Translations under genes and position numbers: made by a program
Assembly (NCBI GenBank): GCA_964486155.1
Contig: CAZAKQ010000002.1
Location: 1 to 62,153, forward strand
Direction of reading: 5' to 3'
DNA length: 62,153 bases
Source: an uncultured Candidatus Saccharibacteria bacterium
GTDB taxonomy: Bacteria > Patescibacteriota > Minisyncoccia > Phycocordibacterales > UBA12079
Notes under the pieces: generated by a model
What the model was told of the DNA's origin: nothing
Database searches by the model: none
The model's input: the letters and a program-made list of their open reading frames with translations, nothing else
Shown here: piece by piece, positions 23,980-36,461 of the stretch
Layout: the number at the start of each line of letters is the position of its first letter
Position numbering within the stretch: the stretch's first letter is position 1

Positions 23980-24172
23980 GTTCTTTATTGTAACAAAATA
24001 AATAGTTAATTCAATCAAATTCTAACACCCCATCCGTTAAAACTAAAAAATTCTACTAGTCCAATTAACTGAACTAATTTACTCCATTTAAATGGAATAT
24101 TTGAATTACTTATAATTATTAATTAACCTTTTTACCTTACAAATACAAAATAATCCAAAAATTAAACACAGC

Positions 24173-24212
24173 TCAATTAGATTATTCCAATTAATTGGAA
24201 TAATCTAATTGA
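24173..24212. repeat. 40-bp perfect palindrome (core tattCCAATTAATTGGaata)
   Basis: Base-by-base symmetry checked. Degenerate relatives lie at 24054-24100. Confidence 0.9.
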
Positions 24213-24286: not shown

Positions 24287-25756
24287 CTATTCTTTATGAT
24301 TTTCTGAATCTAATTTTGTAGTATAACTCATTCCTACTACGGCGACTAAAACAATTCCTCCTAACACAAAACTCCATTTATTTATAGGAAATTTAAAACC
24401 TTCTTCTTTTTTAGCTTCTCCATTGTCATTCATAATCTCGGAAGGTTCAACCTCCCGAGATTTACTAATTGTGGCAATTTGATTATTTGAGATATTTTCA
24501 ATCTTATCTACTGGTTTTTCTACTGAATATAAAACAGGAACTTTTGGAACTACTTCAACTTCTTCTTTAATAAAGCTAGAGACTTCATTTTTTATATTTG
24601 AATTTTCTTTTTTTTCAAAATTAAAAGCTAATATACCATTTGGATAAAGTAATTGAACAATTGAATTTTCTTTTGGTAATAAACCGCTAACACTATAAGG
24701 TAATTTTAAGTAACTCTTTGGGAGTAAAATAGTGTTTTTAGGCAAAGTAAAATAATTATTATCTACTCTCAAACGCCACCAAGATAAATTAATTTCATAT
24801 TTAGAAGAATTATAAAGCTCTATAAAATTATCATTAAAATCTATTTTAACATTAGAAATAATTATTTCTGAAGGAATTACTTCTATTTTTAATTTATCAC
24901 TAGTAGAATATTCTCCTGAAATAACTTCTAATACAAGCATATATTTACCTGGATAAGCATAATTATGTAAAACACTTTGTCCTTTTCCTTTAGTTCCATC
25001 TCCAAACGACCATTGATAAAGAGCGTTTTCCAAAATTTCATTTTCCAAACCAAGAGCTTTTCCTGAAAAAGTAAAATCAGCTCCAACAATAGGTAAATAT
25101 TCTAAAGAATCAATTTTAGCCTTTATATTTACTTCAATAAATACTGGATTTGTACTTTGAGAAGAAGTAGGTGTAGGTTCTTGTATTTTTTCAAATACAG
25201 ATCCTTCTTCATTTTCAATATTTTCTATAAAGTTAATTTTTCCTAAACTAGGACTAGAAGATATCCACTCTCCAGAAATTTTTTGTAATGATTTTCCATC
25301 TCCATTAGCTCCCCAATCAGACAAATAATCAACAGAATCAATATCTATTAAATCTAAGTTTCTTATAACTAAAAGTTCGCCTGAGTTTTTTAAAGAAAAA
25401 GATGTATCTAAAATCAATCCTGCAAAATTTGGATTATCTCCATAAAATTTATCAGGATTATCTACTAAAATTGCATAATCTCCTCCAGACAAAATAGTAT
25501 TTCCTCCTTCTGATATAGATTTTATTTTATGATTGGTTTCTGCTTCATATAATTTCCACTTACTCAAGTCAACATCACTAGTTCCTGAGTTATAGACTTC
25601 TATCCACTCTCTTCCGCTATCACTCCCTATCTCTAAATCATACATTATTTCAGTAATTTCTATTTGAGCTAAAAGCAAATTAACTGGATAAAATAAAAAA
25701 CAAAAAACGACTGTTATTAGTCGTTTTTTATTTAATTTTAAAAACAATTTAAACAT
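24287..25756 (-). CDS. surface protein with lamin-tail-like (LTD) and PKD-like domains and a C-terminal TM anchor
   Basis: ITEIMYD..EWIEVYN and FIELYN..WWRL LTD-like segments, a WSFGDGTKG PKD motif, a signal peptide and a C-terminal hydrophobic helix. Confidence 0.65.
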   Translation of the reverse strand: MFKLFLKLNKKRLITVVFCFLFYPVNLLLAQIEITEIMYDLEIGSDSGREWIEVYNSGTSDVDLSKWKLYEAETNHKIKSISEGGNTILSGGDYAILVDNPDKFYGDNPNFAGLILDTSFSLKNSGELLVIRNLDLIDIDSVDYLSDWGANGDGKSLQKISGEWISSSPSLGKINFIENIENEEGSVFEKIQEPTPTSSQSTNPVFIEVNIKAKIDSLEYLPIVGADFTFSGKALGLENEILENALYQWSFGDGTKGKGQSVLHNYAYPGKYMLVLEVISGEYSTSDKLKIEVIPSEIIISNVKIDFNDNFIELYNSSKYEINLSWWRLRVDNNYFTLPKNTILLPKSYLKLPYSVSGLLPKENSIVQLLYPNGILAFNFEKKENSNIKNEVSSFIKEEVEVVPKVPVLYSVEKPVDKIENISNNQIATISKSREVEPSEIMNDNGEAKKEEGFKFPINKWSFVLGGIVLVAVVGMSYTTKLDSENHKE

Positions 25757-27533
25757 CTTCTTTAGGTTTTTCTACATATAATATATCTTCTAAATCTTTT
25801 TTAGAAACTTCTTTATTTTGATTTTGTTCTAATACTTCTTTTGATTTCTGAATTATTGTATTCTCCTGCTCATTTTCTCTTTTAGAATTTAATGAAGACA
25901 TAGTTTTTTGTTGATGTGAGTTTTGTTTTACTGAATTCGTTTGTTTTGAAACTTCTAACCCATCTACAAATTGCTGATTAGACGATTTAAGTTCTTGTGA
26001 TTTGTTGTTCTTCAACTCCAAATTCTTCATCGCTTCAGAAAGAGCTTCTTTCAACTGATTTTTATTATCAATAGGAATTTTAGTTCTTGTTGACTTAGAT
26101 TTTAAATGACTAGTTTTGTTATTAGACAAATCTTTTAAAGAAATCTTTTTATTTTTTAATTTAGAGTAAGTTTGGATCTTAGGAGCACTTTGTTTAAAAT
26201 TATTTTTGTTAGATTGTATTTTAGTTTTAGCAATTATTTTAGTTGAATTAAGCCATTCTTCAATTTTTTCTTCCACCATTTTTTTAGGACTAGCAAAATT
26301 TTCACGAGAATATTTTATTATTTCATCTTTATATGAAAAATCTGGTTTAGTAATAGGAGGAAGAGTTCTTGCAGAAAAAGGATTAGAACCTATTCCATCA
26401 ATCATCAGTCTCAAATAAATTTGAGCAAAACCTAAATTAACCAAATCTTCAGCTGTAAATTCGGGAGAAAATTCTTTTTCTAATTGTTCGGCATCTGTAG
26501 CTCCTACTCTAAAAGTAATCATAGTTCCTACGTTTCCAAACACAGCAGCACGGACTACTTCGGGCATTTGTTCAATATATTGATGAGCTAAAGTCAAATT
26601 TAACTTGTATTTTCTAGCTTGAGATAATATATCAGCGAAAGAATCATTAGCTAGATTCTGAAATTCATCAATATATAAATAAAAATTAGGAAGTTTCGCT
26701 AATTCTTCTGTCCTTACATCGGCCCTACTCATCGCAGCTAAATATATCTTTGTAGTTAACATAGAACCTAATAAATCCGCGTTAGCTTCGCCTACTTGTC
26801 CTATAGAAAGATTAACCAAAAGAATCTTTTTACTATCTAAAACATCTCTAAAATCAAAAGAAGATTTTTCTTGCCCTACAATATTTCTAATTAAAGGATT
26901 AGAAGTAAATTGTCCCACTTTATTTAAAATAGCAGCATAAGCATCTTTTCTATATCGCTCATCCCATCCAGCAAATTCTTCAGTCCAAAAAGCTTTAACG
27001 GAAGGATCAGTAATATTAGCTACTACTTTTTTCCTATATTTAGCATCCGTAAATATTTTAGTCATTCCTAACATAGTAGATCCTGGATATTCTAAAAGAG
27101 CCAACAAAGTATTATTAGTAATATGTTCCATTCTATCCGAAAAAGTATCCTCTCCCCAAATCTTTTTAAAAGCAGAAAGAAGCCCTTGAGCAACTAAATG
27201 TCTTTTATCTGGACCAACATCTTCCATCACATTGAAAGAAATAGGATTATCAACATCAAAAGGAGCAAAATAAATTACATCTTCAATTCTCTCTTCAGGG
27301 ACATAATCTAAAAACTTTTTAATAGATTGCCCATGGGGATCAATAAAACACATACCATTTCCTTCTTTAATATCTTGAACAGCCATATTTTCTAACATAG
27401 TGGACTTTCCCATCCCTGTTTTACCTATAACATAAATATGTCGTGTTCTGTCTGAAGCTTTAATCCCAAAAGGAGTTCGTCTATTTCGTCGATCAATTTC
27501 AGCAAAATATGTAATTGAGTTAGTATCTTTCAT
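25749..27533 (-). CDS. TraD/VirD4-like (FtsK/HerA superfamily) P-loop ATPase with a low-complexity tail
   Basis: Walker A GKTGMGKST and Walker B LYIDEFQN. No N-terminal TM. C-terminal ~170 aa are K/N/S/Q-rich. Confidence 0.65.
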   Translation of the reverse strand: MKDTNSITYFAEIDRRNRRTPFGIKASDRTRHIYVIGKTGMGKSTMLENMAVQDIKEGNGMCFIDPHGQSIKKFLDYVPEERIEDVIYFAPFDVDNPISFNVMEDVGPDKRHLVAQGLLSAFKKIWGEDTFSDRMEHITNNTLLALLEYPGSTMLGMTKIFTDAKYRKKVVANITDPSVKAFWTEEFAGWDERYRKDAYAAILNKVGQFTSNPLIRNIVGQEKSSFDFRDVLDSKKILLVNLSIGQVGEANADLLGSMLTTKIYLAAMSRADVRTEELAKLPNFYLYIDEFQNLANDSFADILSQARKYKLNLTLAHQYIEQMPEVVRAAVFGNVGTMITFRVGATDAEQLEKEFSPEFTAEDLVNLGFAQIYLRLMIDGIGSNPFSARTLPPITKPDFSYKDEIIKYSRENFASPKKMVEEKIEEWLNSTKIIAKTKIQSNKNNFKQSAPKIQTYSKLKNKKISLKDLSNNKTSHLKSKSTRTKIPIDNKNQLKEALSEAMKNLELKNNKSQELKSSNQQFVDGLEVSKQTNSVKQNSHQQKTMSSLNSKRENEQENTIIQKSKEVLEQNQNKEVSKKDLEDILYVEKPKEDV

Positions 27534-28163: not shown

Positions 28164-28189
28164 ATTTAGTCCAGTTAACTGGACTAAAT
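28164..28189. repeat. 26-bp perfect palindrome, core tagtCCAGTTAACTGGacta
   Basis: Symmetry checked base by base. Confidence 0.9.
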
Positions 28190-28321: not shown

Positions 28322-28363
28322 TAAAACCCTACTAGTCCAGTTAACTGGACTAGTAGGGTTTTA
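28322..28363. repeat. 42-bp perfect palindrome, core tagtCCAGTTAACTGGacta
   Basis: Symmetry checked. Lies 26 nt 3' of the HTH gene stop, so it may double as a terminator. Confidence 0.9.
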
Positions 28364-28388: not shown

Positions 28389-28820
28389 TCAATTTCTTTT
28401 CTTGTATTTTTCATCTATTTGATTTAGAAAATCCCATCTACCTTTTCCTACAATCGGGGGCATTCCACATTTTAAAACAATCTCCATTCCATCCCAAAAA
28501 GTAACTCTGTTCTTTTTCTTTTCTACCATTTCTAAAATATTTTCATATTTGTCAAAATCAATATCATTAGCTACTTTAATTACTGTAGATTTACTTACAC
28601 TTAAAATTTTATGAATACGATACATAGATACTTTTTCGTATAACATAAAAATTATAGATAGTCGTTTAGCTAAAACTATTTTTTCAGATTCTGTTAATAA
28701 ATCATCTAAAAATCCTTTAGCTGAAGTATTAGTTTCCAAATCAGCAACAATATTAACTAAACGACTATTTATTTTGTTCGAAACATTTTTCTTTAATTTA
28801 TTTTTTGAAACATTAACCAT
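28389..28820 (-). CDS. TrpR/YerC-like helix-turn-helix protein (paralog 1)
   Basis: LLTESEKIVLAKRLSII..YRIHKILSVSKSTVIKV resembles the TrpR-family HTH. Paralog at 35706..36152. Confidence 0.6.
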   Translation of the reverse strand: MVNVSKNKLKKNVSNKINSRLVNIVADLETNTSAKGFLDDLLTESEKIVLAKRLSIIFMLYEKVSMYRIHKILSVSKSTVIKVANDIDFDKYENILEMVEKKKNRVTFWDGMEIVLKCGMPPIVGKGRWDFLNQIDEKYKKRN

Positions 28821-28846
28821 AATAATTTAATTAATTATAACATATT

Positions 28847-28868
28847 TTAGTCCAGTTAACTGGACTAA
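28847..28868. repeat. 22-bp perfect palindrome, core tagtCCAGTTAACTGGacta (candidate operator)
   Basis: The palindrome starts 27 nt upstream of the HTH gene start codon. Its centre is 63 bp from the centre of the next copy. Confidence 0.85.
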
Positions 28869-28907: not shown

Positions 28908-28933
28908 GATTAGTCCAGTTAACTGGACTAATC
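28908..28933. repeat. 26-bp perfect palindrome, core tagtCCAGTTAACTGGacta
   Basis: Symmetry checked. Confidence 0.9.
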
Positions 28934-29037: not shown

Positions 29038-29079
29038 AATAATTAAAATACTCCATTTAAATGGAGTATTTTAATTATT
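29038..29079. repeat. 42-bp perfect palindrome, core tactCCATTTAAATGGagta
   Basis: Symmetry checked. Lies 3' of the 29122 gene. Confidence 0.9.
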
Positions 29080-31672: not shown

Positions 31673-31724
31673 AAATTAAAATCTTTATTACTCCAATCGA
31701 TTGGAGTAATAAAGATTTTAATTT
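31673..31724. repeat. 52-bp perfect palindrome, core tactCCAATCGATTGGagta
   Basis: Symmetry checked base by base across 26 pairs. Confidence 0.9.
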
Positions 31725-35649: not shown

Positions 35650-35677
35650 CAATTACCCCAGTTAACTGGGGTAATTG
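35650..35677. repeat. 28-bp perfect palindrome, core taccCCAGTTAACTGGggta
   Basis: Symmetry checked. Lies 29 nt 3' of the HTH paralog 2 stop. Confidence 0.9.
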
Positions 35678-35705
35678 AACGAATTTATAATATCTAAAAT
35701 TACAT

Positions 35706-36152
35706 CTATTTCTTATTCTTATATTTTTTAATATTATATTTTTCATAAATTTCATCTAAGATATTCCATTGCCCCGCTCCTACAATAGAAGGTATCCCCA
35801 TTTTTAAAACCAAATCCATTCCTTTCCAAAAAGTCATTCTATTTTTTCTCAGTCTAACTATTCTCAAAATATATTTATATTTATCTAAATTAATATCTTG
35901 AGAAACTTTTTTTACAGTAGTATCACTTACCTTTATCAATTCAGAAATTCTATACCAACTTAAATTTTCTTGAAGCATAAAAATGATAGCTAATCTCTTT
36001 GCTAAAGTTATTTTTTCTGACTCAGTTAACAATTCATTTAAAAAGTTCTTTGTAGAGGAATTGGTTTCTAAACTAGTAATTACATTAATCAAACGATTAT
36101 TAATATGCTCAGAAACACCTTTTTTTAATTTTTGTTTAGAAACATTAACCAT
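35706..36152 (-). CDS. TrpR/YerC-like helix-turn-helix protein (paralog 2)
   Basis: MVNVSKQKLKKGVS..LLTESEKITLAKRLAIIFML. About half the residues match paralog 1 by eye. Confidence 0.6.
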   Translation of the reverse strand: MVNVSKQKLKKGVSEHINNRLINVITSLETNSSTKNFLNELLTESEKITLAKRLAIIFMLQENLSWYRISELIKVSDTTVKKVSQDINLDKYKYILRIVRLRKNRMTFWKGMDLVLKMGIPSIVGAGQWNILDEIYEKYNIKKYKNKK

Positions 36153-36230
36153 AAAATTATTTAAATTAAAATTTAATAAATCCTATTTTTTTAATTTTTA
36201 ATATTTCAATCAACTTATTTAATATTCTAA

Positions 36231-36264
36231 CACAATACACCCCAGTTAACTGGGGTATATTGTG
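36231..36264. repeat. 34-bp palindrome (one mismatched pair), core caccCCAGTTAACTGGggta
   Basis: Upstream of HTH paralog 2. Confidence 0.85.
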
Positions 36265-36411
36265 GGTAATTATTTTCTAAATTTTATTTAAAATATGAAA
36301 ATAATTGTAAAAAGCAATGACTTAGCAAAACTTTTAGAAAACTAATTTAATTAAATTAAAATTAATCAGACTTAATATCAACATAAAACAGAAAATACAA
36401 AAATTTAACCC

Positions 36412-36445
36412 CTTATATTACCCCAGTTAACTGGGGTAATATAAG
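36412..36445. repeat. 34-bp perfect palindrome, core taccCCAGTTAACTGGggta
   Basis: Symmetry checked. Confidence 0.9.
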
Positions 36446-36461
36446 AGATTGAAATGTTCTT

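Follow-up and report, generated by a model that had tools for sequence, protein, structure and literature searches.

The DNA analysed here, a stretch of 62,153 nucleotides referred to as the window, is the complete contig C2 of the G000 assembly (657 kb, 29 contigs, 28.6% G+C, 98% completeness), which belongs to the Paceibacteria of the candidate phyla radiation (CPR)/Patescibacteria. Two small homologous genes on its minus strand, encoding the proteins P1 and P2, are each ringed by palindromes that have a core in common and differ in the flanks. A first-pass annotation had drawn attention to this arrangement and had considered either diverged repressor/operator pairs or two subfamilies of one mobile unit. 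The features of the two loci are as follows.

35650..35677: palindrome located 29 nt past the P2 stop codon, perfect over 28 bp, caattaccCCAGTTAACTGGggtaattg; its unit is at 35654-35673 and of the TACC type.
35706..36152, minus strand: P2, a 148-residue TrpR-fold protein with Asn3, Asp77 and Thr78 and a C-terminal tail of ~45 residues (open reading frame, Pfam, AlphaFold model and Foldseek).
36224..36232, minus strand: extended -10 box of P2, TGTTAGAAT, 5 nt past the palindrome unit.
36231..36264: promoter-proximal palindrome of P2, with 17-nt arms and one mismatched pair (cacc versus ggta); the 20-bp unit, 36238-36257, reads CACCCCAGTT-AACTGGGGTA.
36407..36450: distal palindrome of the P2 module, perfect over 36412-36445 and reaching the outer limits if one mismatch or G-T pair is allowed; its unit is at 36419-36438 and of the TACC type.
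28164..28189: second palindrome downstream of P1, TAGT type.
28322..28363: palindrome downstream of P1, TAGT type, with 21-nt arms, a bidirectional terminator-like hairpin.
28389..28820, minus strand: P1, a 143-residue paralog with Asn3, Lys77 and Ser78 (open reading frame, Pfam and alignment to P2).
28834..28842, minus strand: extended -10 box of P1, TGTTATAAT, 5 nt past the palindrome unit in the same geometry as at P2.
28847..28868: promoter-proximal palindrome of P1, TAGT type.
28908..28933: distal upstream palindrome of P1, TAGT type, the positional orthologue of a solo site in the relative G004, with the left junction GGATTTAAGAATTAAGAAA common to both.

Exact copies of the core, CCAGTTAACTGG, were found at positions 28171, 28337, 28852, 28915, 35658, 36242 and 36423 of the window, seven matches where 0.06 were expected and a count reached in 0 of 100 shuffles. 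P2 is ringed by three of these copies with the flanks (t/c)acc/ggta, reading (t/c)accCCAGTTAACTGGggta, and P1 by four with the flanks tagt/acta, all of which read tagtCCAGTTAACTGGacta. These results bear out the first-pass annotation as to the coordinates of the palindromes around the 148-residue protein, including the one mismatched pair at 36231-36264, the 12-bp core common to both paralogs with paralog-specific flanks, and the likeness of the four sites around the other paralog. Occurrence of both site variants around both paralogs in this genome had been named there as contrary evidence; a genome-wide search for exact cores revealed no cross-type site adjoining either gene. The P2 locus with all three palindromes is identical base for base in three independent metagenome assemblies, results indicating that it is not an assembly artefact; the palindromes being identical throughout, the same strain comparison is silent on their turnover.

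P1 and P2 are 61% identical and, as had been remarked from the translations, have in common the start MVNVSK and the block LLTESEKI.LAKRL.IIFML and differ in the helix-turn-helix. Both scored above the cut-off of Pfam family PF01371 (27 bits; P2 43.0 and P1 38.1), as did the two further paralogs of the genome, P3 (C1:60439-60891) and P4 (C4:11260-11697), which are both flanked by tactCCAATC(G/A)ATTGGagta. Scores with the NCBIfam models were below the cut-offs for YerC/YecD (TIGR02531, cut-off 42.2; 28.9 and 22.3 bits) and for TrpR proper (equivalog TIGR01321, cut-off 67.25; 23.5 and 20.9 bits). An AlphaFold (AF2) model built from 39 relatives had a mean pLDDT of 81.6 and was confident over residues 11-110, with an unstructured N-terminal arm (residues 1-10), a helix-turn-helix at 66-73 and 77-88, of which 77-88 is the recognition helix, and two additional helices beyond residue 100. 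The best 29 matches of the model in a Foldseek search of the Protein Data Bank (PDB) were all TrpR or TrpR-like, with probabilities of 0.97-1.00 and target-relative TM scores of 0.65-0.78, the best being 3KOR, 3FRW, 1TRR, 1TRO and 3G1C; for the leading TrpR and HisR-type structures the probability was 1.00 and the TM score 0.68-0.78. The HMMER profile matched 3KOR, 3FRW and 3G1C as well, and placed the V-S-x77-x78-T segment on their A-S-T-A-T recognition helix. The C-terminal tail of ~45 residues had no match in Foldseek against the PDB or in the domain and PHROGs searches. No recombinase or nuclease domain was found with Pfam, NCBIfam or PHROGs, which yielded only TrpR or helix-turn-helix matches, those from PHROGs being weak and without names. 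By Pfam and fold P1 and P2 thus belong to the TrpR family; by the curated cut-offs they are neither HisR/YerC nor TrpR proper.

The relation between protein and site was analysed with 26 close relatives (33-86% identity) drawn from related genomes and metagenomes, every one of which lies between copies of a 20-bp palindrome of its own, built as TA-n3-n4-n5-C-A-n8-T-n10 followed by its mirror. Bases 3-4 of the half-site vary with residue 77, at which the recognition helix begins, Asp being found with CC (2/2), Lys with GT (5/5), Ile with GT (2/2) and Glu or Gln with CT (8/8). Base 5 is C in all 16 proteins with Ser or Thr at position 78 and non-C in all seven with Ala, and the centre of the site varies with residue 3 of the N-terminal arm, being AGTT with Asn (15/15) and AATC, AATT, ATTT or GATT with Arg (11/11). 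In a more distant set of 19 relatives, also from this order, the centre was ATA or GTA with His at position 3 (13/14), GTT with Asn (2/2) and ATT with Arg (2/2). Positional orthologues at one locus can differ only in residue 77 and the flank base. At the locus between holB and dut/udg, P3 has Glu77 and TACT sites, L072 Lys77 and TAGT, and L077 Glu77 and TACT; between ligA and gatC, P2 and its G007 counterpart have Asp77 and TACC, L076 Glu77 and TACT, and G006 Gln77-Ala78 and TACTT. When the helix-turn-helix and arm columns are left out of the tree, the nearest relatives of P2 carry other flanks, indicating that the flank follows the residue and not the clade.

Half-sites were also written down from residues 3, 77 and 78 of five new proteins before the DNA was retrieved, and the prediction was correct for five of the five: TACCCCAGTT for P0014 and P0009, TAGTCCAGTT (found three times) for P0016, TACTCCAATC (five times) for P0010 and TA(C/T)TCCATTT for P0002. 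Of the two genes in G007, a genome of another genus, one is of the TACC and one of the TAGT type, and the 27 exact-core sites of that genome comprise 18 of the TACC, 8 of the TAGT and 1 of the TACT type; genomes of the family lacking such genes have 0-3 exact cores. Since P1 has Asn3/Lys77/Ser78 and P2 Asn3/Asp77/Thr78, a shared core with a difference in the flank only is expected, in agreement with that observed. The interpretation of the flank difference between P1 and P2 as one of specificity is well supported by these correspondences, and the agreement across the 26 relatives, the blind predictions and the pair in G007 lend support to the diverged repressor/operator pairs that the first-pass annotation had considered. 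Its wording needs one correction: the flank tracks the recognition residue of the adjacent protein and does not track the overall protein clade.

In approximately 22 of 25 loci, including those of P1 and P2, the promoter-proximal site is followed after 3-5 nt by a TGnTATAAT box, which relatives retain at that offset in the form TGnTA(T/G)AAT. The promoter-proximal P2 site was not terminator-like in a terminator scan. Autorepression is, we infer, the best reading of a promoter-proximal site that abuts a conserved -10 box. It is likely, on the evidence of fold, residue-site correspondence and site placement, that P2 is a dimeric TrpR-fold DNA-binding protein and that the three surrounding palindromes are its own operators. 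The dimer would recognize the 20-bp palindrome TACCCCAGTT-AACTGGGGTA. The core would be common to P1 and P2 because both have Asn3 in the arm, matched to the AGTT centre, and Ser or Thr at position 78, matched to C at base 5; the flanks would differ through residue 77, with Asp in P2 for CC and Lys in P1 for GT at bases 3-4, and this difference would hold the two proteins to separate sites in one cell. The middle P2 site would span about -40 to -21 and cover the -35 region, so that a dimer bound there, beside the extended -10 box, should block its own promoter.

The other two sites, past the stop codons of ligA and P2, bracket the unit, are terminator-hairpin-like and may contribute looping or a roadblock. 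The palindrome at 35650-35677 is followed on the minus strand by TTTTTGTTTT and is terminator-like on that strand in the terminator scan; it is proposed to be a second P2 operator doubling as a terminator hairpin. The distal palindrome at 36407-36450 lies 51 nt past the ligA stop codon and is terminator-like on the minus strand, for ligA; judged by comparison with empty ligA-gatC spacers, from which its limits are taken, it forms the upstream edge of the P2 module. Dimer formation, binding and repression, like a possible ligand and the function of the downstream sites, are inferred. In several relatives (L070, L030, L020, L022, L075 and L068) the -10 box lies only 6-8 nt from the ATG, which implies that leaderless mRNAs are likely.

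The proposed working resembles that of known members of the family. Palindromes of 20 bp serve as the operators of HisR and TrpR, and the regulators are often autoregulated, E. coli TrpR among them repressing its own gene (PMC9413887). The best matches of the P2 family in both sequence and fold are to HisR (the B. subtilis YerC type; 3KOR, 3FRW and 3G1C), with which it has in common the recognition-helix frame xS-x-x-T, 20-bp palindromic operators with a lineage-specific consensus and, in HisR, frequent autoregulation (PMC9413887). Unlike HisR, which has fewer than 100 residues, members of the P2 family have 143-148, with two additional C-terminal helices and a conserved MxxVSK arm, occur in up to four paralogs of different specificities per 0.66-Mb genome, and have a site past the stop codon also. 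No his genes were seen beside P2-family sites, the neighbours of which include ligA, gatC, holB, dut, udg, nrd, dprA, a type IV coupling protein (T4CP) gene, dnaE and gyrB. The likeness to E. coli TrpR (1TRO, 1TRR) lies in the fold and in the operator centre, the central 8 bp AGTTAACT being identical to the centre of E. coli trpO, GAACTAGTTAACTAGTAC (PMC13762905). The P2 family differs from E. coli TrpR in having only 14-16% identity with it, in giving no evidence of a tryptophan pocket, for which no ligand analysis was made, in an N-terminal arm by which the site centre is apparently read, and in bracketing sites and dispersed sites at 3' ends. The specificity positions 77 and 78 would align with Ile79 and Ala80 of TrpR, where helix E begins.

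Several results weigh against P2 as a plain autorepressor with a residue-to-base code. Pro77 is not specific, being found among the 26 relatives with TT (5), GT (2) and CT (2), and the well-supported independent pairs number only 2-3 per trait, all in the predicted direction and too few for a sign test. A generic sigma-70 scan gave no more promoter-like matches than were found in shuffles, a scan that is uninformative in DNA of 29% G+C. Nearly every member of the family has a further site directly past its stop codon, which autorepression alone does not require. Thirteen perfect TATT-type sites and ~10 sites of other types in the G000 genome have no matching paralog in the assembly. The dispersed sites (~39) are located in 14 convergent spacers against 4.9 expected and in 2 divergent spacers against 4.7 (chi-square p = 3e-5), which is not where operators are expected. 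Lastly, a strain allele of P3 found in two other samples (L157 and L158) has Pro77 in place of Glu77 while its flanking sites remain TACT. The allele is 100% identical to G000 over 2.3 kb, all palindromes included, except for a 70-bp patch in which 21 substitutions recode residues 71-91, eight changes accompanying Glu77Pro; among known sequences, the helix of L017 comes closest to the patch, with 89% identity. A patch of this kind amid complete identity indicates that replacement can affect the recognition helix as one block, another paralog being the probable donor through gene conversion, and in this allele the protein has changed ahead of its sites.

The core is also dispersed through the genome. 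All of the 27 exact cores of G000 are intergenic and comprise 7 tagt, 5 tacc, 1 acca and 14 tatt copies. The sites of the family total ~52, with 13 of TACTCCAATC (the P3/P4 type), 7 TAGT, 5 TACC, 13 perfect and one hybrid TATTCCAGTT, and ~ten singletons. A search by tblastn and with PF01371 for a third paralog belonging to the 14 tatt sites yielded only the four family genes in the assembly, none of which has Pro77 together with Asn3. Paralogs of the orphan specificities are held by other genomes, namely L067 (TATT), L070 and L020 (TAGTG), L071 (TACTCCATTT) and L077 (TACTCCAATT); the DNA of the tatt-type gene in metagenomes (L067, L069) is only ~77% identical to G000 and hence from another species. 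Every site is palindromic past the 20-bp unit, with unique arms extended by a mean of 6.6 nt each against 0.47 by chance. Sequences within two mismatches of any site type turn out, with few exceptions, to be perfect palindromes that belong to another type; only a few sites are asymmetric, and there are no decayed copies. Spacers with dispersed sites common to G000 and G007 number ~5 against a rough chance estimate of 2-3, several of the apparent matches lying on the opposite side of the gene.

Three further features of this kind are located in the window.

24057..24202: three clustered family sites, each of a different orphan type, with units at 24057, 24080 and 24183.
29038..29079: orphan palindrome of another family type, TACTCCATTT-AAATGGAGTA, with 21-nt arms, adjoining the P1 module.
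31673..31724: dispersed site of the P3/P4 type, TACTCCAATC-GATTGGAGTA, with 26-nt arms, near a tRNA-Thr gene.

Multi-type clusters with 2-4 palindromes within 40-270 bp and no family gene nearby were seen at window positions 24057-24202 and at C6:3494-3765, C13:5566-5702, C8:18256-18299 and C16:5408-5450 of G000. The P1 module is also adjoined by a gene for a type IV secretion coupling protein (TrwB_AAD_bind, TraG-D_C; 25749-27533, minus strand), the G007 orthologue of which has two TACC-type sites upstream. Neighbours of sites are often genes of DNA metabolism (ligA, holB, dut, udg, ribonucleotide reductase, dprA, dnaE, gyrB and dnaB, together with those for a PIF1-like helicase and a TrwB-like coupling protein), an impression gained partly by eye and with no background comparison. 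An AT-rich palindrome with TATAAT on both strands, TTATAATATTATRCATAATATTATAA, lies 15-45 nt from three TATT-type sites (C5:~42370, C17:~1450 and C3:~12510), and a related palindrome is at window position ~28090, near the site at 28171. Two abundant perfect palindromes of G000, TCCGCCAG-CTGGCGGA (21 copies) and TGCCTGCC-GGCAGGCA (13 copies), are unrelated to the P2 family; the latter is present in the loci of relatives too. G007 has arrays of 3-5 family sites spaced by ~100-130 nt (C74:12024-12267, C32:1867-2245 and C54:6521-6876), often at contig ends and including asymmetric hybrids TACCCCAGTT-AACTGTAGTG, which suggests that such repeats break assemblies. Eight TATCGCAGTT-AACTGCGATA sites are present in G003, of the same genus, and no family gene was found in that 96%-complete assembly.

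The dispersal of the sites and the distribution of the gene raise an alternative, that gene and palindromes are primarily a mobile or recombining cassette, of the type of repetitive extragenic palindromes (REPs) with their REP-associated tyrosine transposases (RAYTs) or of a dif-bounded type. The palindromes would be recombination or landing sites, the protein would serve the element, and most dispersed copies would be footprints or landing pads and not operators. We regard this as unlikely, although several observations favor it. The order ligA-(P2)-gatC-gatA is conserved in the family and the P2 module is cleanly present or absent within it, being found in only three of the genomes checked (G000, G006 and G007); five relatives have an empty ligA-gatC spacer of 21-141 nt and others hold unrelated small genes there. 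The dprA/serS spacer contains in G000 a solo site of the TAGT type, located 63 nt upstream of dprA, and in L070, L160 and G007 a complete P1-like module, with flanks homologous on both sides between genomes. Likewise, the DUF4015/T4CP spacer holds the P1 module in G000, a solo site behind the same junction in G004 and a solo TAGT site in G002. Genes of the P1 clade that are 84-86% identical are located at three different loci in three genomes, and P1 is 84% identical to its G007 relative where GatC and LigA are 60-69% identical. The family has a patchy distribution, with 1-4 copies in each of 85 out of 401 genomes of the order, the orphan site types of G000 are those used by the paralogs of other genomes, and the preference of dispersed sites for convergent spacers is also that of REPs (PMC3337134). 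A circle integrating at a solo site would yield the bracketing.

Opposed to the cassette are the TrpR fold, the tail without a match and the failure to find a recombinase or nuclease domain, together with copy numbers of no more than 14 per type. Only the 20-26-bp unit is held in common, outer arms and spacers being unique, so that no longer element with defined ends is traceable. No relic site is present in the empty ligA-gatC spacers, and only one of four empty hot spots in G000 has one. The conserved geometry of site and promoter fits plain regulation, as does the solo P1-type site upstream of dprA, which is consistent with ordinary trans-regulation by P1. The gain and loss of modules would fit recombination at the sites by analogy with solo long terminal repeats or REP/RAYT-like units. 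The suggestion in the first-pass annotation of two subfamilies of one mobile unit receives some support, from modules and solo sites in the same spacer and from near-identical genes at different loci.

Comparison with the REP/REPIN and RAYT systems (PMC3116915, PMC3337134) reveals both likenesses and differences. Both have a single small gene flanked by cognate palindromes, a gene type paired with a palindrome type in several pairs per genome, and palindromes dispersed extragenically, often with A/T runs. Unlike RAYTs, which are HUH/Y1 (IS200-like) tyrosine transposases, the P2-family gene encodes a TrpR-fold helix-turn-helix protein; unlike REPs, with hundreds of copies, the family sites are in the tens, at most 14 per type and ~52 in all; and unlike REPINs, which are conserved doublets, they are single perfect palindromes with unique outer arms. 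The best reading is that the P2-family unit would work like an autoregulated TrpR/HisR repressor and that the likeness to RAYT/REP is one of layout only.

A bolder alternative, somewhat more doubtful than the cassette, is that the TrpR-like gene evolves together with its palindromes as a self-propagating pair, comparable to RAYT/REPIN and built on a helix-turn-helix protein. The palindromes would be break or recombination sites, the symmetry of which is maintained by hairpin-templated repair, and the gene would enter and leave the chromosome at solo sites, its specificity being reset when paralogs swap recognition helices. Exchange would take place at the dyad, and it is there that the N-terminal arm, conserved as MxxVSK and tracking the central bases, would act.

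It is very improbable that the palindromes are mere intrinsic terminator hairpins with an incidental link to the TrpR-like genes. The terminator scan accepts two of the three sites at P2 and several of those at P1 (2 and 7 hits against 0.1 expected), and many dispersed sites are long-armed, have A/T runs on their flanks and lie behind the 3' ends of genes. Opposed to this, the apex sequence co-varies with protein residues and could be predicted from them, promoter-proximal sites are not terminator-like, and no G-T wobble signal is present at the ends of the arms. A T-rich tail accompanies only 23 of 39 dispersed sites, with an orientation that fits the incoming gene in 15 of 26. At ychF, glyS and trxB the hairpin of the site comes behind an ordinary terminator. 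Insertion of the 20-bp unit in the loop of pre-existing terminators at these three genes was considered and rejected, the hairpins of relatives being quite different and the G000 site hairpin an extra one.

Scarcely credible also is that P1 and P2 do not discriminate and both bind any CCAGTTAACTGG core, the flanks differing by inheritance through local duplication of sites: sites round one gene are possibly tandem copies, so that 4/4 and 3/3 are not independent, 14 TATT sites have the core but no protein of their own, and Pro77 proteins occur with three different flanks, yet other genera, positional orthologues and blind predictions all show the same pairing of residue and flank, the change from Lys to Asp reverses the charge at the first residue of the recognition helix, and the outer arms around one gene are all different and so not simple recent copies.

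A full-text literature search combining the Trp repressor with the candidate phyla radiation returned nothing relevant, and no paper describing a P2-type system was found. The P2-type regulators are an undescribed, fast-changing family. The locus contributes a pair of regulators with the same core and different flanks, a predictive residue-to-base code, the alternation of modules and solo sites at syntenic loci, and a helix-swap allele. The code assigns bases 3-4 to residue 77, base 5 to residue 78 and the centre to residue 3 of the arm; new sites were predicted correctly with it, and it illustrates how one Lys/Asp exchange can keep two paralogs in one cell from cross-talk. Positional orthologues with different sites and a strain in which only the recognition helix is replaced are natural material for the evolution of DNA specificity. 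The cassette-like behavior, if true, would constitute a new kind of gene-plus-site unit and would explain many odd perfect palindromes in these tiny genomes. To our knowledge, almost nothing is known on gene regulation in CPR/Patescibacteria, which are not growable alone; for these organisms the P2 family supplies pairs of regulator and site that are readable from sequence alone.

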